Shown: positions 5,542 through 58,327, numbered from the whole stretch's first letter. The stretch is DNA of 63,395 nt, filler included, from 9 parts of 9 records of this genome joined end to end with filler, not necessarily neighbours in it, one strand, 5' to 3'. Notes: generated from the sequence alone by a model not told the origin. A program made the numbers and translations.

Positions 5542-5641
5542 NNNNNNNNNNNNNNNNNNNNNNNNNNNNNNNNNNNNNNNNNNNNTTAATTAATTAANNN
5601 NNNNNNNNNNNNNNNNNNNNNNNNNNNNNNNNNNNNNNNNN
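5542..5641. other. Artificial contig linker
   Basis: N44-TTAATTAATTAA-N44 (stops in all frames); composition changes across it. Confidence 0.98.
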
Positions 5642-13477: not shown

Positions 13478-13577
13478 NNNNNNNNNNNNNNNNNNNNNNN
13501 NNNNNNNNNNNNNNNNNNNNNTTAATTAATTAANNNNNNNNNNNNNNNNNNNNNNNNNNNNNNNNNNNNNNNNNNNN
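13478..13577. other. Artificial contig linker
   Basis: N44-TTAATTAATTAA-N44. Confidence 0.98.
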
Positions 13578-21036: not shown

Positions 21037-21136
21037 NNNNNNNNNNNNNNNNNNNNNNNNNNNNNNNNNNNNNNNNNNNNTTAATTAATTAANNNNNNNN
21101 NNNNNNNNNNNNNNNNNNNNNNNNNNNNNNNNNNNN
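21037..21136. other. Artificial contig linker
   Basis: N44-TTAATTAATTAA-N44. Confidence 0.98.
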
Positions 21137-26950: not shown

Positions 26951-27050
26951 NNNNNNNNNNNNNNNNNNNNNNNNNNNNNNNNNNNNNNNNNNNNTTAATT
27001 AATTAANNNNNNNNNNNNNNNNNNNNNNNNNNNNNNNNNNNNNNNNNNNN
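26951..27050. other. Artificial contig linker
   Basis: N44-TTAATTAATTAA-N44. Confidence 0.98.
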
Positions 27051-36300: not shown

Positions 36301-36400
36301 NNNNNNNNNNNNNNNNNNNNNNNNNNNNNNNNNNNNNNNNNNNNTTAATTAATTAANNNNNNNNNNNNNNNNNNNNNNNNNNNNNNNNNNNNNNNNNNNN
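36301..36400. other. Artificial contig linker
   Basis: N44-TTAATTAATTAA-N44. Confidence 0.98.
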
Positions 36401-43695: not shown

Positions 43696-43795
43696 NNNNN
43701 NNNNNNNNNNNNNNNNNNNNNNNNNNNNNNNNNNNNNNNTTAATTAATTAANNNNNNNNNNNNNNNNNNNNNNNNNNNNNNNNNNNNNNNNNNNN
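43696..43795. other. Artificial contig linker
   Basis: N44-TTAATTAATTAA-N44. Confidence 0.98.
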
Positions 43796-48946: not shown

Positions 48947-49046
48947 NNNNNNNNNNNNNNNNNNNNNNNNNNNNNNNNNNNNNNNNNNNNTTAATTAATT
49001 AANNNNNNNNNNNNNNNNNNNNNNNNNNNNNNNNNNNNNNNNNNNN
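48947..49046. other. Artificial contig linker
   Basis: N44-TTAATTAATTAA-N44. Confidence 0.98.
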
Positions 49047-49226
49047 GCGGGACTATCTGATAAAACGCTTTTAGTTGTGTGATGGAAAAAAATATAAAAA
49101 ACTCCCCTTTGACCCTAAAAACTAATCTGCTAAGACAGAAGAAATTAACGGCATGCCTTTCAATTTTTAATTCAAGAGTAGGAACGAAAAATTGAAGCTG
49201 CCACACCAAAAATACAGGAGAACAAA

Positions 49227-49460
49227 ATGGCAGATTTTGAGTGCGAGAGATGTGAACGGGAGTTTGATTCAATAGAATTTGACAGCATTGATGATGAAGT
49301 CAATGAAATGGAGCCCTTGTGCCCTAATTGTCAGGAAGCTTCCAGGATTGAAAAACAAGAGTGTGAATATTGCGACAAGCAAGCAACCCATGAAGCAGGA
49401 GATCTGTACTTGTGCGAAGATTGCTTTGAGGATTGGGCAGACGGATTCCGGCGAGATTAG
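49227..49460 (+). CDS. Small acidic double zinc-ribbon protein
   Basis: RBS AGGAG; four CxxC motifs (CERC, CPNC, CEYC, CEDC). Confidence 0.7.
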   Translation: MADFECERCEREFDSIEFDSIDDEVNEMEPLCPNCQEASRIEKQECEYCDKQATHEAGDLYLCEDCFEDWADGFRRD

Positions 49461-49491
49461 AACAATTATTTTTTTCGGGACCGAACTAAAT

Positions 49492-49516
49492 ACCCACCGG
49501 TTTCAAACCGGTGGGT
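49492..49516. repeat. Perfect 12-bp inverted repeat
   Basis: ACCCACCGGTTT-C-AAACCGGTGGGT. Confidence 0.85.
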
Positions 49517-49602
49517 GTTCTATGCCCTCAAGGGCCAAAACCCTATCGCTTGATAAAAAATAATGGATAAATCTCGAATTCAAAAAATAGCGAGGTATCA
49601 TC

Positions 49603-51202
49603 TTGATTCAGCACAATGTAATATGCAGCATGATTGAAAACGAATTGAAAAAGCATAGCCTCAGTTTAGAGACTGATGATTTAAAAACTTTTTATACAGA
49701 CCCAAATAGTATCACACTTAGAACTGTATCTTCTGGAAGAATTTTGAATGGCACAGGAGGTCTTCACTATTCGGAATATCTATACCATCATTATTTAACA
49801 AAAGAACAAAAAAGAAAAATATTCGTTTCAAGTTATGAAATAGGACATCCCGACCCTATTCCCGACAGGTTAGAAAAGAGTCTATTTGCTTATTTACATA
49901 AAAAATATGGTGGAGGAGATGTAGAAGGTGTAGTCAAAAGGATCAAAAAACAGATCTCAGCATTAACTAATATTCCTTTTAAAAATTTTCTCAATCAGGA
50001 TAGAAACATTGCATACAAAGTTCTGACCTTATTTTACAGAGTTAGTCAACAACACAAAAGCCAACTTTTCACTTTTTTACGTAAGGAGGATGAACAAAAA
50101 GCAGAGTTTGAATTTCGTTCCTCATATCCCTCTGAATTAGATAATGCTTGTCAAAATTCTGCTATCATAGCGGAATTGCTATCTTCTCTTTCTTTCAGTA
50201 TGCCTTTAAACGAATGGACTACAGCTCAACAAATATCTGCAAACTTAGCTGAGGCTGGAAATATTATTAGCGAACGTATTCAGGATGAGATAAAAAAAGA
50301 ATCACAATCATTAGAATACTCACCTAAAGATATCTACGTTAAGTTGAAACAATTATTGCCTGAAGCGATGCAGAAAAGCAACTGTGATAACAACCAATTG
50401 CTTTTTCGTTTATATGCCGCATTAACGTTACAAGAGTATTCGTTTCGTAGTAAATCGAACGAAATATTAGCCAAGTCTGTTTATTCACATCCTATAAAAA
50501 TGAAAACATTGTATCGTGCGAGATTGAAAACATTTAACGATGAAGACGTTTTGCCTTATTTATTAGGTCACAAGATTCCCAGAAAACGATCAGAATTAGA
50601 TCTAAAAGCCAAATTTATCAAAAAAATCATCCTTTCTTATGCCCCCATCAACTCAGAGCTAAGAAAAAGATTCCCTAAAATGAATTTCCAAATCATCAAG
50701 GCAATGATCCTACATGATGAAAAGCTAAATATTAAAATCCCTTCGAAAGTAAAAGGAATAGGAAACACCCCTAACTCGGTAACTTCAATCTTAAAAAATG
50801 CTGTCAAGTATTCAAAAAAGAATTCAAACAGCCTTCCCCCACTGACATTATATCCGGAAGCATTGGTATTGTATTGGCAAATACGCTATCATCTTATCTG
50901 TAATGCATTATTTTCCAAAAACATGGAAACTGTCATAAATAACTATTGTAAAAAATCAGAATTAAACCGGATCGTAGATATTGAATTATTAAACTATTTT
51001 TCATTTCAAGGTTCGTCAACATTCGAAAATATGTCTATATTGTCAGGGGAAAAGTGATAATCTCGTTTTACCCAAAAACATAAGGGATATCGGATATGGG
51101 GCAAGAACTTTTGATGTAGATGGTGCCTACAAATGGCTCACTCAATTAATAAACTCAACTCATAATTATCAAGCTGAAAAATTTCAACCATCAAAATACT
51201 GA
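49603..51202 (+). CDS. Hypothetical protein; track ORF ends at 51057, but a -1 correction at about 51050 extends it to 51202
   Basis: 484-aa AT-rich ORF. The alternative frame SDNLVLPKNIRD...EKFQPSKY* stays open to TGA 51200-51202, inside the attC-like site. Confidence 0.65.
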
Positions 51203-51232
51203 CGGACAAGCCGCAGATTTTGGATGTTCACA
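51182..51232 (+). mobile_element. attC-like site A (short, best preserved)
   Basis: TTTCAAC-CAT-CAAAAT[A]CTG[A]CGG-ACAAG-CCGCAGATTTTG-GAT-GTTCACA: AAC/GTT ends and a perfect 12-bp stem with two extrahelical bases. Confidence 0.7.
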
Positions 51233-51237
51233 AGGAC

Positions 51238-51317
51238 GCCGGACGCGGGGTTGCCAATCGCCCGATAAAATGCTACCGCTGAAGCTTTACCAGCGGGCAG
51301 CTTAACCTTCGTTAATA
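51238..51317 (+). mobile_element. Degenerate attC-like site B
   Basis: GCCGGAC...GGTT/AACC and GCCCG/CGGGC arms...GTTAATA; ATG follows at 51322. Confidence 0.45.
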
Positions 51318-51321
51318 ATAA

Positions 51322-52068
51322 ATGGAATCCTACGACTACAACATCAAATTTTGGGAGCCTTACATCAATCGTCAGTTTATTGATCAAGTTGAATTACTGC
51401 ATAAAACGGTTGGACAACGGCTTATTCCGACCTTCAACTCAGTAGAGCAAGAGGCAGAAGAAATTACTGAAAAAAAATGGAATGAATTAAATTCTTCCGC
51501 ATGCTCTCCTGATATTGATCCAGCAGATTTGGCTGAAGCTGCTGAGGAAGAAGGTGTTAACTATTTTTTAATGCTTGCAGATATCAAGCAGTCTCTGCTT
51601 AATACTACAGCTATAACGTTATTTCATCTATTTGAGCAACAGGTGATTTTTATTTTAAGAAGAGAGATAGTCCATCCCGCAGAGGAATTTTGTGCAAACC
51701 TGATGAAGATCGATGAGTTCAAGAAAAGGCTTTCATCTTCAGGAATCAATATCACCAAATTCAGGTCATGGAATACAATTTGTGAATTAAAATTCCTTGC
51801 CAATGCGACAAAACATGGTGGAGGTTCTTCTGCTGAAAAATTACGAAAACTTCGGCCCGACTTATTCTCACATCCTCTATCTATTGAACGAAAATTAGGG
51901 CAAATAGGCAAATCTCCATCGAAACGGCTCTACTCTCCATTGTCCGGTGAGGATATCTATGTTTCAGAAACGGATTTGACAAAGTACAAAAATGCTATTG
52001 TGAACTTTTGGAAAGATTATATTGAATGCTGTAATAAGAAATTAAAGGATACAATTCAACAAGGTTAA
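51322..52068 (+). CDS. Hypothetical protein, HEPN-like helical fold
   Basis: ITLFHLFEQ...WNTICELKFLANATKHGGGSS (N-x-x-K-H variant). Confidence 0.55.
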   Translation: MESYDYNIKFWEPYINRQFIDQVELLHKTVGQRLIPTFNSVEQEAEEITEKKWNELNSSACSPDIDPADLAEAAEEEGVNYFLMLADIKQSLLNTTAITLFHLFEQQVIFILRREIVHPAEEFCANLMKIDEFKKRLSSSGINITKFRSWNTICELKFLANATKHGGGSSAEKLRKLRPDLFSHPLSIERKLGQIGKSPSKRLYSPLSGEDIYVSETDLTKYKNAIVNFWKDYIECCNKKLKDTIQQG

Positions 52069-52113
52069 TGCAATCTACGTAATAAAAAGCGAGGCTGATT
52101 AGCGGTGTTTAGG
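52054..52113 (+). mobile_element. Degenerate attC-like site C
   Basis: ATTCAAC (RYYYAAC)-AAG-GTTAAT[G]CAATC...GGCTGATTAGC-GGT-GTTTAGG. The upstream stop lies inside it and the next ATG is at 52127. Confidence 0.65.
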
Positions 52114-52126
52114 GACAAATTTTAAA

Positions 52127-52618
52127 ATGGAATTTGAGAAAAATCTATACGAGCAACTTGGGAAAGTTACTGTATTCTATTCAGAACTTGAAGAAGCCCT
52201 TGAATATTTATTATCAGCATTATTAAATCAGCCTTTAAAAGTAGCGGCTATTATTCTTCATAGGCGGCCAATTTCCAATTCAACGAATATTATCGAAGCA
52301 TTATTCAAAGAAAAAATAATCGATACTAATTTGCAGTCACGTATGGATAAATGGCTGCAAGGAATGAGAGATTGCATAAATAAAAGGAACCTGTATGTGC
52401 ATTCAACCTGGTCCATTAGAGATCAGGAATTTACAATACGTAGCAAATCAAAGATAAACAAAAAAGGTTTTAAATCTGACTGGAGTTGGGCAAGGCCAAG
52501 TGAGATCGAAGAACTCGCAAATTCAATAGAGGGCATAACCTTAGAATTGCATGGAATTCTTTTAGAGATGGAGGAGAAAGGATTAACAGATTTTGAAGAC
52601 CTACCATTGGACTATTAA
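52127..52618 (+). CDS. Stand-alone HEPN-domain protein (putative RNase)
   Basis: LGKVTVFYSELEEAL...KRNLYVHSTW, an intact Rx4H motif in an all-helical protein. Confidence 0.65.
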   Translation: MEFEKNLYEQLGKVTVFYSELEEALEYLLSALLNQPLKVAAIILHRRPISNSTNIIEALFKEKIIDTNLQSRMDKWLQGMRDCINKRNLYVHSTWSIRDQEFTIRSKSKINKKGFKSDWSWARPSEIEELANSIEGITLELHGILLEMEEKGLTDFEDLPLDY

Positions 52619-52705
52619 AAGCATTACTTAGCCGATAAATGGAGCAGTATAAAGCGCTTTAGAAAAATATAAGAATAACAAAAACTGAATAGGAGTTTTT
52701 ACTAA

Positions 52706-53059
52706 ATGTCTGAAAAATATCGGTCGTTATTCGGCACCCCTACCAATGATGTGAACAAGGCTTTTCCTGACGTTAAATCGCTCGATATCACCATTGACCG
52801 AGACCCTTATGGCTGGTATTGCAGCAAAAAAGAACAAAAGATTATCCATTTTACAAAATCATCATTACAAAGATTCGTGACCTGCCCAAATCCAAGTTGT
52901 CAACAGGGTGGTCTTGACCTTCAACTAATCATATCCTACCAGAACAGTGATGAGTTTACATTATCATGTAAAGGGCATGAGGGGAGTCCTAAAGGCCGTA
53001 GGAAGGGAGATCCGTGCGACAATGCCTTTAAAATCACTTTGAGGATTGAAAGAGAATAA
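52706..53059 (+). CDS. Small Cys-rich (Zn-binding) hypothetical protein
   Basis: RBS AGGAG; CPNPSCQQGG...CKGHEGSPKGRRKGDPCDN. Confidence 0.7.
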   Translation: MSEKYRSLFGTPTNDVNKAFPDVKSLDITIDRDPYGWYCSKKEQKIIHFTKSSLQRFVTCPNPSCQQGGLDLQLIISYQNSDEFTLSCKGHEGSPKGRRKGDPCDNAFKITLRIERE

Positions 53060-53065
53060 AGGAAC

Positions 53066-53752
53066 ATGGATGATGAAAAAATAATCTATTCCGATTGGTC
53101 CTTCACCAATGAAATCGAAATTGATTATTCTAAAAAAGACACTTGTCAGCTGTGCGGACACAAGGGGTTGAAATATAAATATTATATCCGACACAAAAGC
53201 AAACATGATTTAATGATTGTTGGTTCAAGCTGTATCCTGAAATTCTCGGATATAAAAATTTATTCAAAAGATGGCAAATTAATTTCAAATGAAAAATTGA
53301 GAGAAAAAGCGCTGAAGGATTCTCTTAATGAGCATCTGCGAGAAGCTGCATTAAGTTCTTTGCGCGATTTATACAAAATTAAAGAACTCGAAATTCGGCA
53401 TCTCAAGGACTATTTTACCGATTATAATAATAGACTTAATATTCCAAGACCTTCTCAGGAGGAAAGAGAAAAATATCATTTTTTTAAGGATTTTGAATCA
53501 TCGATCATTGCAGCTAAAGACAATAAAAAACTATCTTTCGAACCCTTGTTTTTAATTCAAGTTTTCAAGGAGTTACATGAGCATGGAATATTCTATGAAC
53601 CTCTGGCTTTTCATATAAGCTTACGAACGCTTTCAGCACAGATTGATTTAAAAGGGTTGATCATAAATAGTTCCTCTGATTTTGAATTGATTAAGTCTTG
53701 TTTAAGCCCTACGCAATATAGAAAATATGTTATTGATTCATCCGGGAATTAG
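53066..53752 (+). CDS. Hypothetical protein with N-terminal Zn ribbon
   Basis: CQLCGH...IVGSSCI; starts 6 nt after the previous stop. Confidence 0.7.
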   Translation: MDDEKIIYSDWSFTNEIEIDYSKKDTCQLCGHKGLKYKYYIRHKSKHDLMIVGSSCILKFSDIKIYSKDGKLISNEKLREKALKDSLNEHLREAALSSLRDLYKIKELEIRHLKDYFTDYNNRLNIPRPSQEEREKYHFFKDFESSIIAAKDNKKLSFEPLFLIQVFKELHEHGIFYEPLAFHISLRTLSAQIDLKGLIINSSSDFELIKSCLSPTQYRKYVIDSSGN

Positions 53753-53765
53753 GATACGAATGGAA

Positions 53766-53817
53766 TCTCAACGACCTAAATACACACGGATAAGCCGGTA
53801 ATTTTGAAACATTCACT
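53766..53817 (+). mobile_element. Degenerate attC-like site D (same family as site A)
   Basis: TCTCAAC-GACC-TAAAT[A]CAC[A]CGG-ATAAG-CCGGTAATTTTG-AAAC-ATTCACT; aligns with 51182-51232, with GTT mutated to ATT. Confidence 0.6.
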
Positions 53818-53836
53818 AAAATAAAGGAAAGGGAAT

Positions 53837-55043
53837 ATGTCGCGTTCTGCTGACTATACGATCCAAGGTTTCTTGTATCAATTCAACAAAACTGCTTTAG
53901 AGATACTGAAAGCACAGGATGATGACATAGTTACAGTTGAGGGCATTGTTGAAGACATTGATGTGGTTAATCCCACGTCGCTGACAGCGGTGCAGTGCAA
54001 GTATCACGAAGCTAAGTATATCCTTTACGGCAAGCAAGGTATACAAGCCCCTGCTCCAGATGCTTAAATATTTTTCTGAGAATCAGACTTCTAACATTCG
54101 TTACGTCCTCTTCGCACATTTCTCTAAAGTCGGTACGCCAGCACCAACTATAAATAAGGCTATCCTGAAAGCTGCCTTGGCCTCCAAGGACAAGAAACTG
54201 GCGAAGTACGTAAATGCAGTGCCACCAGACATCAATCTCAATAGTTTTTTAGATCGATTCACTATGGAGTTTGGCCCCTGCTACGATGAAATTACAAAAG
54301 AGGTCAACAAAGAACTGGAGTCCAACGGGATGCCAACTGACGATATCGAAATACTCACATATCCAAATGCAATCCATATGATCGCCACGCTCAGTGTGAA
54401 ACATGATCCAGCTGAAAGGAGGATAACGAAGAAGAAATTTCTTTCTGATCTGACAGCTATCCGCAAAACAGCCATTTCTCGTTGGACACTGGCACTCAAA
54501 ACCCGGGAGAAACTGCTTCAAGCGTGCCGGAAGCAGCTCAAAATTCACCTGGATAAGAATGCGCGGTTACGCTACTTTGTCATTGATCCTAACGGCATTG
54601 AGGACTATGACAGTGAAATAGTACTTTTTATTTCCGATTACCTCAACAAATACCATTTTAAGCCTGCTCATATCAACACACCAATTATTTGCCTCTGCGC
54701 AAACCAAAATGAAATTCAGAACATTCAGCACCGGCTTTATACAAAGGGTATTGTTGCAACTGATGGCTATATGGGCGGGCAGTTTGAAGGTGCTTTTTTC
54801 TACAGAGAGCCATTGTTTTCTAAGGGTGTTGGGGGCAAAGTGAAACGCGAATTCAGTCTTCGCATTTTAAATTGGGGTGACCATGGGAACGTATTGAATG
54901 ATCGGAAATGTGATGACCTTTTTATAATAGGTGAGCCGGAATGCAACTCGATAGATACTGTGGACGTAAACGTCGAACGTCTGGCCGGAGCAACAATGAA
55001 AGAAATTAAATATATCATGGGGGTAAGCAATGTCTACGAGTAG
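53837..55043 (+). CDS. DUF4297 anti-phage nuclease (PD-(D/E)xK), one extra base near 54014
   Basis: MSRSADYTIQGFLYQF...VEGIVEDIDV...QCKYHE. Removing one A gives ..EASISFTASKVYKPLLQML.., joining 54060..55043; overlaps the herA start. Confidence 0.8.
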
Positions 55044-56805
55044 CATAGGTCAAGTACTCTCTTGTTCTCCAGAAGCCATTATTGTCCTAATTGACGATTT
55101 GAAGGTTTTCGAGGAGTACAAAGCGGCCCTACAAGTGGGACGCTATCTGAGAATTGCCCAAGGAAACAACGATTTCACCGTTGCCGCTATCCGTAATGTC
55201 CGTGGAGTCATAGGACAAGATGATGAGGGCAAGCCAAAGTGGCAGTTTAACATCGAATGTCAAGCAATTGGTACCCTCGTTGGTGGTAGCACATTTGAAC
55301 GTTCAAGCGTTCTCCTGCCAGTGCCTACGGAGCCTGTATTTCCAGCAGAAGAAGATACATTAGAAAAGCTTTTTGCGAAAGATGCTGCCTACCAGTTTCC
55401 ACTCGGCCAATTGTCGATGAACAAAGCAACAGAAATGAAAATCCATGGAGATCGATTCTTCAGTAAGCACATCGCTATCGTAGGGTCCACAGGCTCTGGA
55501 AAGTCATGCACAGTCGCTCGGATTCTCCAAGACGTAGTGGGTATAGCCAATGAAAAGAATACAAATAAAGGGAATCAGAACAACTCTCATGTTGTAATCT
55601 TCGATATCCACGATGAATACACGGCAGCATTCACTCTTGAAAAGGAACAAATATTCACACTTAACCGCCTCGATATAGACAGCCTTCAGCTTCCTTACTG
55701 GCTTATGAATTCAGAAGAACTGGAAAGTATGTTCATCGAAAGTAACGAGCAGAACTCTCACAACCAAGTTAGCCAATTCAAACAAGCCGTAATTCTTAAT
55801 AAGGAGAGACACAATCCTAAAATTAAGGAGATGACATATGACACCCCGGTATACTTTTCGATTACAGAAGTGTATCGCTACATTGAAAATATGAATCGAG
55901 AGATGATAGGCCGGGCTCCGGGAGAGAACAAGCCCAAATTAGATGATGGAACACTGGTTGAGGATAGAAAAGACCACTATTTCGACGAGCAGTGTACATT
56001 CGTTCCTCAATCTAACGCTGCCGCCACAAAAGCTACAAACGGTCCATTTAATGGTGAATTCAACCGTTTCGTGTCGCGTTTGGAAACCAAATTGTCAGAT
56101 AAGCGCCTACGATTCTTGTTACACGCAGCCAAACCCGACGGGAAGATATTCAAGACAGAAGATTTCGAAGAAATAATGAAGCAGTTCATTGGGTATTTGA
56201 ACAAATCGAATGTCACAATTGTGGACCTCAGCGGAATTCCGTTTGAAGTACTGAGCATCACTGTTAGCCTTGTGTCCCGCTTAATATTCGATTTTTGTTT
56301 CCACTATTCGAAGTTGCGCCATGAAAAAAATGTCCTGAACGATGTTCCTGTTATGATTGTTTGCGAGGAAGCCCATAACTACATCCCGCAAAAAGACGCA
56401 GCTGCATATCGATCATCACGGAAATCGATAGAGCGGATCGCAAAAGAGGGTAGAAAATATGGTCTCAGCCTAATGGTCGTGAGTCAACGCCCGTCAGAAG
56501 TCTCTGAGACAATTTTTGCGCAGTGCAACAATTTTCTGGCGCTCAGGCTCACTAACAATGCTGATCAGAACTACGTGCGGAGGCTATTCCCAGACAATTC
56601 AAGCGGGATCACTGACATTCTTCCTAATCTGGCCCCCGGCGAATGTGTTGTTGTAGGTGATGCAGTTTTGCTCCCGGCAGTTGTTCAGATGCCCTTACCA
56701 AAACCGGAACCGCATTCAAGCAGCGTGCGTTTCTACAATGAATGGAAAGAGCCTTGGCGGGATATCACTTTTACCGAAGTATTAAACCGATGGCGAAAAG
56801 AATAG
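55030..56805 (+). CDS. herA: HerA/FtsK-family ATPase of the DUF4297-HerA defence system
   Basis: HAS-barrel-like N-terminus, KHIAIVGSTGSGKS, FDIHDEY, Walker B CEEAH, IAKEGRKYG, SQRPSE. Confidence 0.9.
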   Translation: MSTSSIGQVLSCSPEAIIVLIDDLKVFEEYKAALQVGRYLRIAQGNNDFTVAAIRNVRGVIGQDDEGKPKWQFNIECQAIGTLVGGSTFERSSVLLPVPTEPVFPAEEDTLEKLFAKDAAYQFPLGQLSMNKATEMKIHGDRFFSKHIAIVGSTGSGKSCTVARILQDVVGIANEKNTNKGNQNNSHVVIFDIHDEYTAAFTLEKEQIFTLNRLDIDSLQLPYWLMNSEELESMFIESNEQNSHNQVSQFKQAVILNKERHNPKIKEMTYDTPVYFSITEVYRYIENMNREMIGRAPGENKPKLDDGTLVEDRKDHYFDEQCTFVPQSNAAATKATNGPFNGEFNRFVSRLETKLSDKRLRFLLHAAKPDGKIFKTEDFEEIMKQFIGYLNKSNVTIVDLSGIPFEVLSITVSLVSRLIFDFCFHYSKLRHEKNVLNDVPVMIVCEEAHNYIPQKDAAAYRSSRKSIERIAKEGRKYGLSLMVVSQRPSEVSETIFAQCNNFLALRLTNNADQNYVRRLFPDNSSGITDILPNLAPGECVVVGDAVLLPAVVQMPLPKPEPHSSSVRFYNEWKEPWRDITFTEVLNRWRKE

Positions 56806-56827
56806 ATAACTCAAAAAGCCACATATC

Positions 56828-57448
56828 ATGGTCCCCGATAAAAACAACCCCAATATAATAAAGTTGATTCGAAGGCTACCACTGAAATCAAAACCTATGT
56901 ATGTACCAGTAATACCTGAGAAGTTCGCCAAACCAAATTTCTGTTTTCCTTCGGTAACCAAGAAGATACAAAGAGATGGAGGAAGTATTATTTATGGATG
57001 GCTATTACGACAGGGGAAATATATTATAGAGGCTGAATTCCATGCAGTTTGGAAATCTAATGAAGATAATTTAATCGACATCATGCCACATGAAAATGCA
57101 CCTGAACAAATTTTATTTATACCTGACAATTCAAAAAAATATGATGGTTTGCAAGTGGATAACATTCGATTAAACATCTCAAATAATTCCCTAACGGACG
57201 ATTTTATTAACATTTGTGAGGCTCTCTATCGAATAACAAATCAAGGACATCTTGCCTATGAGACGGGTGAGATAAAATTAACAGATGATTCAGCAAGCAA
57301 TTATCATTTTTTGGCAAATGCAAAAATCGGGGTACTTGGAATGCTGGATCACGGATGTTCAGAAAATAGCCCCTGCTTTTGTGGAACTGTTTTAATGTAC
57401 AAACATTGTCACCGTACATTTATTAAAAATTTAATATCTCTATTATAA
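56828..57448 (+). CDS. SEC-C motif protein with possible Cys-His-Asp catalytic domain
   Basis: NFCFPSV...GW...AEFHAVW...LIDIMP; C-terminal NSPCFCGTVLMYKHCH. Confidence 0.65.
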   Translation: MVPDKNNPNIIKLIRRLPLKSKPMYVPVIPEKFAKPNFCFPSVTKKIQRDGGSIIYGWLLRQGKYIIEAEFHAVWKSNEDNLIDIMPHENAPEQILFIPDNSKKYDGLQVDNIRLNISNNSLTDDFINICEALYRITNQGHLAYETGEIKLTDDSASNYHFLANAKIGVLGMLDHGCSENSPCFCGTVLMYKHCHRTFIKNLISLL

Positions 57449-57497
57449 CCGGTGTCGCTTCGGACCGCCGGGCTTCAACGGTCTGGTGAGGCTAGGC
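57443..57497 (+). mobile_element. Degenerate attC-like site E
   Basis: TTATAAC (contains the stop) ...TCGC/GTGA and GGACCG/CGGTCT arms... GCTAGGC (GTTAGGC variant); ATG at 57505. Confidence 0.5.
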
Positions 57498-57504
57498 AGA
57501 GAGT

Positions 57505-58128
57505 ATGATTGTTACCATGCAAGGATATGTTTATTTTTTGATTAACAAAGCAATGCCTGGTCTACTTAAAATAGGCCACACCACAATATCTGTAAGTGAA
57601 AGATTGGCTCAGCTAAATTCAACAGGAGTCCCTATCCCATTTGAAATTGGGGCTTGCTTTTTTGTCCATGAACCACAAGAATGTGAATCAAAAATTCATA
57701 AGTGCCTTAATTCGTATAGAGTTTCTAAAAATCGTGAATTTTTTAATGTGGCACTTAATGAAGCGTTAAAAGAATCCAGCTTCTTAATATCTAAATATCT
57801 CTTTAAATCGTATGATTCTGGCAGGACTGCTCATATTGAAAGAAATCTTGATCTTTCCGATATTGAAATATCAATTTTAAAACATCTTGCCGACGACTAC
57901 CACAGAAAATATGGCTTTTTAACTTGGCAAATTCAAGACGATTTTAGAGAGGCAGATGCTCTTGATATTGAATATTATCTTGCTTGCCTTAAAGGGCATG
58001 GCTTTATTGAAGAGAAAACTAAAAAAGGTCACCATGATAAAAACTGGAAAATAAACAGCAATGGTATCAAGTATCTATATGACTCAGGTGTTTTTATCAC
58101 AAAACCAAAACCTGAGGAATTCCGTTGA
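57505..58128 (+). CDS. GIY-YIG (T5orf172-type) nuclease with C-terminal winged-helix-like domain
   Basis: GYVYFLIN...LLKIGHT...ERLAQL...TGVPIPF...NREFF; LKGHGFIE...WKINSNG. Confidence 0.85.
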   Translation: MIVTMQGYVYFLINKAMPGLLKIGHTTISVSERLAQLNSTGVPIPFEIGACFFVHEPQECESKIHKCLNSYRVSKNREFFNVALNEALKESSFLISKYLFKSYDSGRTAHIERNLDLSDIEISILKHLADDYHRKYGFLTWQIQDDFREADALDIEYYLACLKGHGFIEEKTKKGHHDKNWKINSNGIKYLYDSGVFITKPKPEEFR

Positions 58129-58140
58129 CATGTTACTTAA

Positions 58141-58188
58141 TTCCAACAAGTGAAATGCTCGCGCCGAGCTAAATCTAGATCGATGGGA
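58141..58188 (+). mobile_element. Degenerate attC-like site F
   Basis: TTCCAAC...GCTCG-CGC-CGAGC...GATGGGA (near complement of TTCCAAC). Confidence 0.4.
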
Positions 58189-58227
58189 TAAGGCATAGGG
58201 CCTTAGAAATTCGATATTGTTACCCAG

Positions 58228-58327
58228 NNNNNNNNNNNNNNNNNNNNNNNNNNNNNNNNNNNNNNNNNNNNTTAATTAATTAANNNNNNNNNNNNNNNNN
58301 NNNNNNNNNNNNNNNNNNNNNNNNNNN
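58228..58327. other. Artificial contig linker
   Basis: N44-TTAATTAATTAA-N44. Confidence 0.98.

Follow-up and report, generated by a model that had tools for sequence, protein, structure and literature searches.

Clusters of attC sites lacking an integron integrase (CALIN), a category of IntegronFinder, and sedentary chromosomal integrons such as the Vibrio superintegron, whose attC repeats are longer than ~50 nt, are among the described systems closest to the element studied here, a contig at 49047–58227 of a 63,395-nt stretch of DNA (the window). In the mechanism considered for such elements, each cassette would end in an attC whose bottom strand would fold into a bulged hairpin; the IntI tyrosine recombinase would cut the attC between the G and the TT of the right-hand core, and cassettes would thereby be excised as circles and then re-inserted. 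The term CALIN is used in PMC7923331, which also reports attC introns in the same orientation as the cassettes as rare; the group IIC-attC introns described in PMC3001079 occupy the bottom strand and so run against the cassettes. Integrons are on record in Desulfobacterota (PMC8618304), and integron cassettes encoding phage defence have been published (bioRxiv 10.1101/2024.07.02.601719 and PMC12614218). DUF4297 together with an integron was not found in a full-text literature search.

Very probably, the contig is part of a cassette array from a chromosomal integron of the Desulfobacterium-like type. It adds an instance to an established class of elements, and it carries the known anti-phage gene pair DUF4297-HerA. 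A lineage-specific attC model, cassette borders that fall at breaks in sequence similarity, and attC-flanked homologues of DUF4297-HerA and T5orf172 all bear out the integron cassette geometry that an earlier note had read from the raw sequence of the window.

attC Sites of the Array and a Reference Integron

The spacers that hold two of the proposed attC sites, A and D, share a repeat of ~70 nt (local alignment z = 5.4, with 0 of 200 shuffles as high). A 28-nt IUPAC pattern for the A/D core had one match in 185,579 species genomes, namely in G001, a metagenome-assembled genome titled uncultured Desulfobacterium sp. with a 5.77-Mb chromosome. The integron integrase of G001 (TIGR02249 at 373 bits, the cut-off being 265) is encoded in an open reading frame (ORF) of 433 amino acids (aa) on the minus strand (L002:1495-2796). 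Downstream of this intI, at 16, 25, and 37 kb, the plus strand has near-matches of the A/D pattern, which is the classical divergent layout. A covariance model (R1) was built from four G001 sites near intI. Over the 100 kb next to intI it retrieved 20 sites (E ≤ 0.06), 20/20 on the plus strand; they extend over 2,742,787–2,821,531, and the same repeat families lie 5–85 kb from intI. In the alignment of the 20 sites, 93.9% of the cells are paired, compared with 79.9 ± 1.6% after shuffling and 31–50% after sliding; compensatory changes occur in 7 of 15 pairs, and the covariation score was reached by none of 500 shuffles. The AA...TT ends are kept in all 20 sites and the C-G pair in 19, and the bottom strands fold at a mean of −7.3 kcal/mol, with three of the 20 at −1.8 kcal/mol or weaker. 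The second model (R2) was made from these 20 sites. Neither model holds any window sequence, and attC matching here refers to R1 and R2, which are lineage-specific.

The contig was compared with 161 genomes of the family of G001, from which G014, G040, G067, G082, G100, G151, G153, and G158 are named below. The same repeat families adjoin TIGR02249-positive genes in relatives. Of five further family genomes, four have 2–5 TIGR02249 matches each, 2–3 per genome being over the curated cut-off, and several of the matches lie 16–26 kb from copies of a conserved module (B, described below), on the expected strand.

The TIGR02249-positive frames fall into two length classes, ~433–467 aa and ~333–347 aa, with places in G001, G082, G040, G100, and G067, and several genomes hold both. 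The G001 IntI ORF has an N-terminal extension of ~110 aa, and one open frame of 535 aa fits neither class.

R2 and R1 were run over all 63,395 bases of the window, on both strands and with filters off. The three top matches are site A at 51180–51234 (R2 59.9 bits, E = 6e-11; R1 64.8 bits), site D at 53764–53819 (R2 27.3 bits, E = 1.5e-3; R1 30.2 bits), and site C, of a longer subtype, at 52052–52115 (R2 20.9 bits, E = 0.039; R1 17.9 bits); the next best match reaches 14.5 bits with R1 and 11.4 bits with R2. All three sites are on the plus strand, in spacers just 3' of ORFs. Site A runs from TTTCAAC (51182–51188) to GTTCACA (51226–51232), site C from ATTCAAC (52054–52060) to GTTTAGG (52107–52113), and site D from TCTCAAC (53766–53772) to ATTCACT (53811–53817), in which the G of GTT is lost. 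RYYYAAC and GTTRRRY cores are thus recognisable, with the purine/pyrimidine positions outside AAC/GTT fitting loosely. A 29-nt core of site A is identical to that of a site in the G001 array.

The seven sites proposed in the earlier note were folded as DNA on both strands, with 300 shuffles each. The bottom strand of site A forms a hairpin with three single-base bulges at −8.9 kcal/mol (z = −3.7), inside the range of the G001 sites. The folds of C, a proposed relic, D, E, and F are indistinguishable from shuffles (z from −1.1 to +1.1), and that of B (z ~ −2) comes from two separate small local hairpins. The claim that most spacers hold imperfect hairpins is not borne out as worded, since only A beats its shuffles and a gapless inverted-repeat scan reports none of the seven sites. 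A bulged bottom-strand hairpin is absent from C (−1.0 kcal/mol) and D (−2.5 kcal/mol). In G001 and G158, copies of C align with it at z = 8.2 and 13.1, values that none of 300 shuffles attained, and their bottom strands reach −8.3 and −14.6 kcal/mol, against the −1.0 kcal/mol of C itself. The orthologue of D in G067 retains GTT yet folds weakly as well (−1.2 kcal/mol). C and D probably no longer recombine, the stem of C being lost and D having ATT for GTT and a weak stem. The array sites are in a mixed state, with one intact (A), two eroded (C and D), one split by an intron (F), and one truncated (at the contig start). The earlier idea that attC erosion had fixed the array stands as far as the erosion of C and D is concerned; site A is intact, and therefore the array is not shown to be fixed.

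About half of the earlier site list survives. A, C, and D are attC-type, and F is half an attC; B is not an attC, and the relic (52626–52661) and site E (57443–57497) are unsupported, neither having a model match in small-range scans. AAC...GTT ends hold for A and C but not for D, which has ATT, nor for F, whose proposed right end (58188) is inside a group II intron. Stop codons in or beside the left ends are found within ~14 nt at C, D, E, and F but not at A, which begins 125 nt past the stop of a 484-aa ORF, and ATGs follow the right ends of B, C, D, and E at 5–20 nt. The recovery of A, D, and C by a lineage model built without window sequence, and the intact relatives of the repeats in the G001 array beside intI, speak for the same integron interpretation. 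Searches by blastn-short were less informative: sites A–F against the window gave self-matches and chance-level matches only (best E 0.04), missing the kinship of A and D, and the relic, site E, the spacer with the hairpin described next, and the HerA-P9 spacer gave nothing meaningful against 266 kb of family DNA, in a search insensitive enough to miss the eroded C also.

The strongest hairpin on the contig is a near-perfect 15-bp one at 49489–49519 (inverted repeat I4), after a 77-aa ORF, with a fold of −13.7 kcal/mol (z = −6.7). Its flanks are GAAC...GTTC, and it is similar to the inner stem of an attC subtype found in G001; the attC model gives 7.7 bits only around it (over 49454–49525). 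It may be terminator-like or a very short attC variant.

Cassette Borders and Mobility

A BLAST search of the contig against the 161 family genomes gave 47 rows in 33 genomes. By hand count, 28 of the rows lie on the A/B region, 15 on F, and four on genes (P5 twice, P2 once, and the 3' end of T5orf172 once). We also used Logan contigs of other sample assemblies, runs X1–X4, where X1 is the likely source sample and stretches of the contig uncovered in X2–X4 were not counted as evidence.

Cassettes occur in different contexts, with borders at G|TT, at three places. At 51310/51311, the GTT at the end of B, contigs of X3 and X4 start to match and have unrelated DNA before; an X2 contig simply ends there and tells nothing about the border. 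At 53809/53811, the crossover of site D, similarity ends with a locus of G067 (C271, L020:1049-2202), which shares 53066–53809 (P5 and D) at 88% identity and differs from the crossover on. The third border is at 49076, where the left-end repeat is compared with G067 and G153. In G067, the pair containing P5 sits between attC matches of 51.6 and 28.0 bits. P4 was considered as the upstream partner of P5 there and rejected, since G067 has an unrelated ORF of 151 aa in that place, compared with the 117 aa of P4. The P4-P5 arrangement suggests a two-gene unit with an exchangeable first partner.

Run X2 keeps the order 3' part of P2-C-P3-P4-P5 at ~97% identity, which fits a reduced recombination at C and at the relic. 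From D to F, 4.3 kb with four genes (DUF4297, HerA, P9, and T5orf172) contain no detectable attC, and these four genes would now travel, if at all, as one block.

Contig Ends and a Group II Intron in Site F

The window is split by eight N44-TTAATTAATTAA-N44 linkers (5542–5641, 13478–13577, 21037–21136, 26951–27050, 36301–36400, 43696–43795, 48947–49046, and 58228–58327) into nine contigs of a draft genome, 5.1–9.3 kb long with a GC content of 0.36–0.55, and the studied region is exactly one of them, 9,181 bp with a GC content of 0.383. Contig joins account for the GC steps at ~49.0 and ~58.3 kb, which are therefore not island borders. Since the nine contigs are unlinked and were joined in arbitrary order, the adjoining DNA of the window is not genomic context; neighbourhood readings across linkers are unsafe, and neither the GC steps nor the missing intI in the window carry any weight.

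The left end of the contig, 49047–49076 on the plus strand, holds what the contig start has left of an attC of a long subtype, namely its 3' arm and the GTT (49074–49076), which opens the first cassette. It matches copies in G067:C560 and G153:C336 at 27 of 29 bases. In both genomes, a complementary left arm is situated ~90 nt upstream, and similarity stops just after the GTT. The first ~31 nt of the contig are also repeated in runs X1 and X4.

At the right end, site F (58139–58159, plus strand) matches the left half of the attC model, the whole stretch reaching 7.5 bits, and is followed by 68 nt (58160–58227, plus strand), identified by their likeness to G001 as the start of a group II intron, and then by the contig end. 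The last 94 nt (58134–58227) are 96% identical to a segment inside the G001 array, and the conservation continues beyond the point where the window stops in G001 and four other genomes; in G151, the contig ends after ~46 nt more. The continuation in G001 (L001:3480-5662) matches Rfam group-II-D1D4-6 (RF02005) with 92.3 bits and Intron_gpII (RF00029) with 47 bits, and carries a 455-aa RVT_1 ORF (1.7e-37). The G001 copy thus has both the ribozyme domains and the reverse transcriptase of a group II intron, of which the window holds the first 68 nt, and the right half of an attC follows the intron in G001. In five other genomes, the copies are inserted behind attC left halves that all differ from one another, yet at the same relative position, and the five genomes checked have 1–2 copies each. 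An X1 unitig with a depth of 66 spans the junction between attC and intron, and other X1 and X4 contigs run on past 58159 into an ordinary attC interior. These uninterrupted versions diverge after 58159; therefore, the first base of the intron is 58160. Site F is therefore half an attC, and the group II intron that splits it lies on the cassette strand. Both contig ends break in repeats, as expected of the short-read assembly of an array.

Points against an Integron Array and Alternative Explanations

Several observations weigh against an integron array. Neither intI nor attI was found on the contig or in the window; the earlier note had reported no intI in the fragment, and the same is true of the whole window (tblastn with the G001 IntI, best E = 4). 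The reference genome was reached via a motif read from A and D, which means that its choice was not blind. Only one of the seven proposed sites (A) folds better than shuffles, and the expected borders at 52619–52705 and 57449–57504 have no attC signal by model or BLAST. attC sites are ~57–141 nt in size, and the short sites here measure ~46 nt from AAC to GTT. In addition, the HerA-P9 spacer is only 22 nt. As for the integrase, both contig ends break inside repeats, and therefore the absence of intI on 9 kb is uninformative and speaks neither for a CALIN nor for a complete integron.

The alternative that survives best, although it is unlikely, is a dead CALIN along the lines of the earlier note, in which the genome neighbourhood would lack an integrase and attC decay would have frozen every cassette. 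The erosion of C and D, the two expected borders without a recognisable site, the splitting of F by the intron, the lack of intI in the window, and the P2-C-P3-P4-P5 order retained at ~97% identity in X2 are all in its favour. However, site A scores and folds like the sites of a working array, and in two other samples the context changes at the 51311 border. Repeats stand at both contig ends, the repeats of G001 reach 85 kb from intI, and weak folding does not mark a dead array either, as 3/20 sites in the intI-linked G001 array show it.

It is quite improbable that the contig is mis-binned with respect to the other window contigs, or that it belongs to a plasmid-borne mobile integron rather than to a chromosome. 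The range of GC contents in the window (0.36–0.55) and a GC-rich 7.3-kb contig without a DNA match in G001 would agree with such an origin, but G001 shows the same contrast between its array (0.32–0.46) and its flanks (0.55–0.58), and related repeats sit on multi-megabase contigs in G001, G082, G040, and G100. This explanation touches the location only, not the nature of the element.

Most improbable is the idea that the repeats are not recombination sites at all but ordinary intergenic repeats with a superficial likeness to attC, either terminators or REP/MITE-like sequences (repetitive extragenic palindromes or miniature inverted-repeat transposable elements), and that they belong to a prophage remnant or a defence island: short hairpins after genes can be terminators, one G001 copy is followed by a T run, three contig proteins have PHROG family matches, and the sites are shorter than classical attC, but the repeats are grouped on a single strand next to a TIGR02249 integrase and have conserved AA...TT and C-G ends, similarity between genomes breaks at GTT, terminator-like sites are not enriched on the contig (8 found against 6.8 ± 3.1 expected), and the 28-nt A/D-core pattern has no match in IMG/VR. 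An Rfam scan of the contig (E ≤ 10) gave chance-level matches only. The array of a chromosomal integron remains our preferred description in what follows.

A Conserved Module Adjacent to attC

Directly after site A lies module B (51226–51313, plus strand), a conserved non-coding unit of ~88 nt whose first bases are the GTT of site A and whose last are a GTT of its own (51311–51313). Its assignment as an attC was rejected, since it is a conserved unit standing directly after attC sites in many relatives and is not matched by R1 or R2. We aligned 23 copies, consisting of 20 fetched loci (L030-L049), two G001 copies, and the window copy; the 22 further copies come from 17 related genomes, and the BLAST rows point to more. 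Copies elsewhere include L016:19672-19763, L016:14417-14508, and L018:2154-2213. An attC (R2, E ≤ 0.01) abuts B in 14 of the 20 fetched loci, and one more copy follows an intron-split attC; the attC subtype that precedes B varies. At the right end of B, an inverse core and a core are only 4 nt apart. The DNA after B varies between copies, except in seven loci with a common conserved non-coding extension of ~130 nt.

Two further assignments of B were rejected. As a structured RNA, it scored −6.1 kcal/mol in RNAalifold with a covariation term of +0.17 and compensatory changes in 1 of 12 pairs, on 21 of the 23 copies (L031 and L036, which diverge half-way, were dropped), and an Rfam search of 11 B-module loci (E ≤ 1) returned chance-level matches only. 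As a copy of attI, it was searched for by nhmmer in nine intI-proximal regions with a best E of 0.96, in a search whose positive control found three G001-array copies. It is a rather doubtful proposal that B is a new integron-associated unit, ORF-less and cassette-like, with two crossover points and a right end that, on double-stranded DNA, would be like the simple site of an attI. If so, new cassettes could be inserted at B within the array, or B could control the next cassette as a promoter or regulatory element. Taken with the attC-specific group II intron, which sits on the cassette strand, it would then point to an integron biology peculiar to Desulfobacterota.

Cassette Cargo

The earlier description of co-oriented AT-rich genes with short spacers holds. 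The contig has eleven ORFs of 76–591 aa, with all substantial ones on the plus strand; this count takes the DUF4297 gene as two pieces, which are the shortest-spaced pair.

The DUF4297 gene occupies 53837–54067 and 54060–55043 on the plus strand (PADLOC PDLC02187, 7.9e-19 and 2.8e-23; NCBIfam NF042945). The HerA helicase gene (55030–56805, plus strand), which overlaps it by 14 nt, matches PADLOC PDLC02188 (3.3e-179), NF042944 (646.6 bits, cut-off 850), and Pfam DUF87. In the corresponding X1 contig (9,116 nt), base 54015 is missing and 54017 reads T>C, and DUF4297 is then one frame of 401 codons; two more differences from the window are an additional A behind 49085 and G>A at 57491. As X1 is possibly the source sample, it counts as a second assembly and not as an independent organism. 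The break in the DUF4297 frame is not robust and may be an assembly discrepancy or a minor variant, a caution against taking it for a pseudogene. Relatives of HerA (E ≤ 1e-40) occur in 7 of the 161 family genomes, with nine matches at eight places (two matches being in one ORF). Two of the eight places are linked to attC: a DUF4297-HerA pair in G153, with a 56.5-bit attC 61 nt later, and a SIR2-HerA pair in G014, with an attC of 26.6 bits after it.

The T5orf172 gene (57505–58128, plus strand), of GIY-YIG type, matches Pfam T5orf172 (1.1e-14) and the PADLOC candidate system PDC-S57 (2.8e-30). It was rejected as a full PDC-S57, since the match covers profile positions 4–88 of 212, which is the T5orf172 domain, and the C-terminal half differs. 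Its homologues have an attC alongside at two of eight places, with 61.2 and 57.9 bits. Homologues of some contig genes are thus flanked by attC elsewhere, as would be expected from the earlier note.

The remaining ORFs, all on the plus strand, have few or weak matches. A 77-aa ORF with CxxC pairs (49227–49460) is zinc-ribbon-like, with weak Pfam zinc-ribbon matches (E ~0.02) below the cut-offs. P1, the orphan ORF of 484 aa (49603–51057), has no match in Pfam, NCBIfam, PHROGs, PADLOC, or PDB sequences. P2 (51322–52068, 248 aa) matches phrog_19541 (E = 1.2e-15) and belongs to a large family of ~235–245-aa proteins, in which 0 of 58 members had a Pfam match; cluster representatives number at least 1001 when E ≤ 1e-3 is required and 125 when E ≤ 1e-30 is. 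The conserved residues of this family are N, K, H, and G, without a clear Rx4-6H, and the invariant columns are N, Q, H, G, and G. The AlphaFold2 model of P2 (predicted local distance difference test score, pLDDT, 94.8) is a helical bundle. The top VIA-align matches are the HEPN toxins 7ae2_A (Z 9.4, with a root-mean-square deviation of 4.7 over 136 aligned residues) and 5yep_B (Z 8.2) and several more HEPN proteins, at Z values below the level that the tool deems safe for helical bundles, and Foldseek of the model against the PDB gave nothing at E ≤ 0.001. The predicted bundle can be said to resemble HEPN toxins.

P3 (52127–52618, 163 aa) is an orphan with a weak HepT match (E = 0.019, far below the cut-off). 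A search of 5.8 billion proteins gave one relative, 97% identical, on a 1,118-nt contig of the same length as the one from X2, and the single-sequence model of P3 (pLDDT 38.7) was not used. P4 (52706–53059, 117 aa) and P5 (53066–53752, 228 aa) are 6 nt apart. P9 (56828–57448, 206 aa) matches phrog_37148 (6.7e-31) and has a SEC-C-like zinc motif at its C-end (SEC-C E = 0.009, below the cut-off); it had no match in the 161 family genomes at E ≤ 1e-8, although an empty answer from this search shows nothing. In a PDB sequence search with P1, P2, P3, and P9, the 20-residue SEC-C motif was the sole match below E = 0.02. To call these orphans candidate new defence systems, as was done before, is an overstatement that rests on neighbourhood alone, and since each cassette is captured separately, a defence neighbourhood counts for less here than it would in an ordinary defence island.

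The array beside intI in G001 (G001:C1:2742987-2763014, L001) encodes a NACHT protein with an inactive-restriction-endonuclease N-domain, a RelA/SpoT-domain protein, a nucleotidyltransferase and HepT pair, a RhuM-family gene, and an rmlC-rmlD sugar-nucleotide pair. As annotated, this cargo is a mix of defence, toxin-antitoxin, and metabolic genes. PADLOC on 11 ORFs from the G001 and G067 arrays gave one weak SIR2-type match only.

Comparison with Known Systems

The reading of the raw sequence recognised integron geometry correctly in a lineage with little-studied arrays, and the lineage attC model, with 20 sites and compensatory changes, can be used to mine cassettes in Desulfobacterium-like genomes and metagenomes. 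Module B and the intron on the cassette strand are two side features for integron specialists, and two-gene defence systems of the HerA type travel as integron cassettes in the family of G001.

Like a CALIN, the sequence in hand has at least two attC sites and no intI; in contrast to a CALIN, it is a 9-kb contig ending in repeats on both sides, where a missing intI is uninformative. The intron in site F shares with the group IIC-attC introns that a group II family enters attC at a fixed relative position. Those introns lie in the bottom strand, whereas this one lies on the cassette strand.

As in the known DUF4297-HerA system, the two genes are adjacent and overlapping and have strong PADLOC matches, but their NCBIfam scores are below the curated equivalog cut-offs, and DUF4297 has a 1-nt frame break in the window. 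The published phage-defence integron cassettes also carry defence genes as cassettes; the case described here is a two-gene DUF4297-HerA unit of ~3 kb, at the level of sequence.

Compared with sedentary chromosomal integrons, the main attC of this array is ~50 nt, several units hold 2–4 genes, the lineage belongs to Desulfobacterota, and the integrase is seen in relatives only and not on the fragment. Otherwise, the contig and its relatives resemble the Vibrio superintegron in their co-oriented cassettes with one attC family across the array and relatives, in an AT-rich array within a GC-richer chromosome, and in the toxin-antitoxin and defence cargo of the related G001 array (HepT/MNT, NACHT, and RelA/SpoT).

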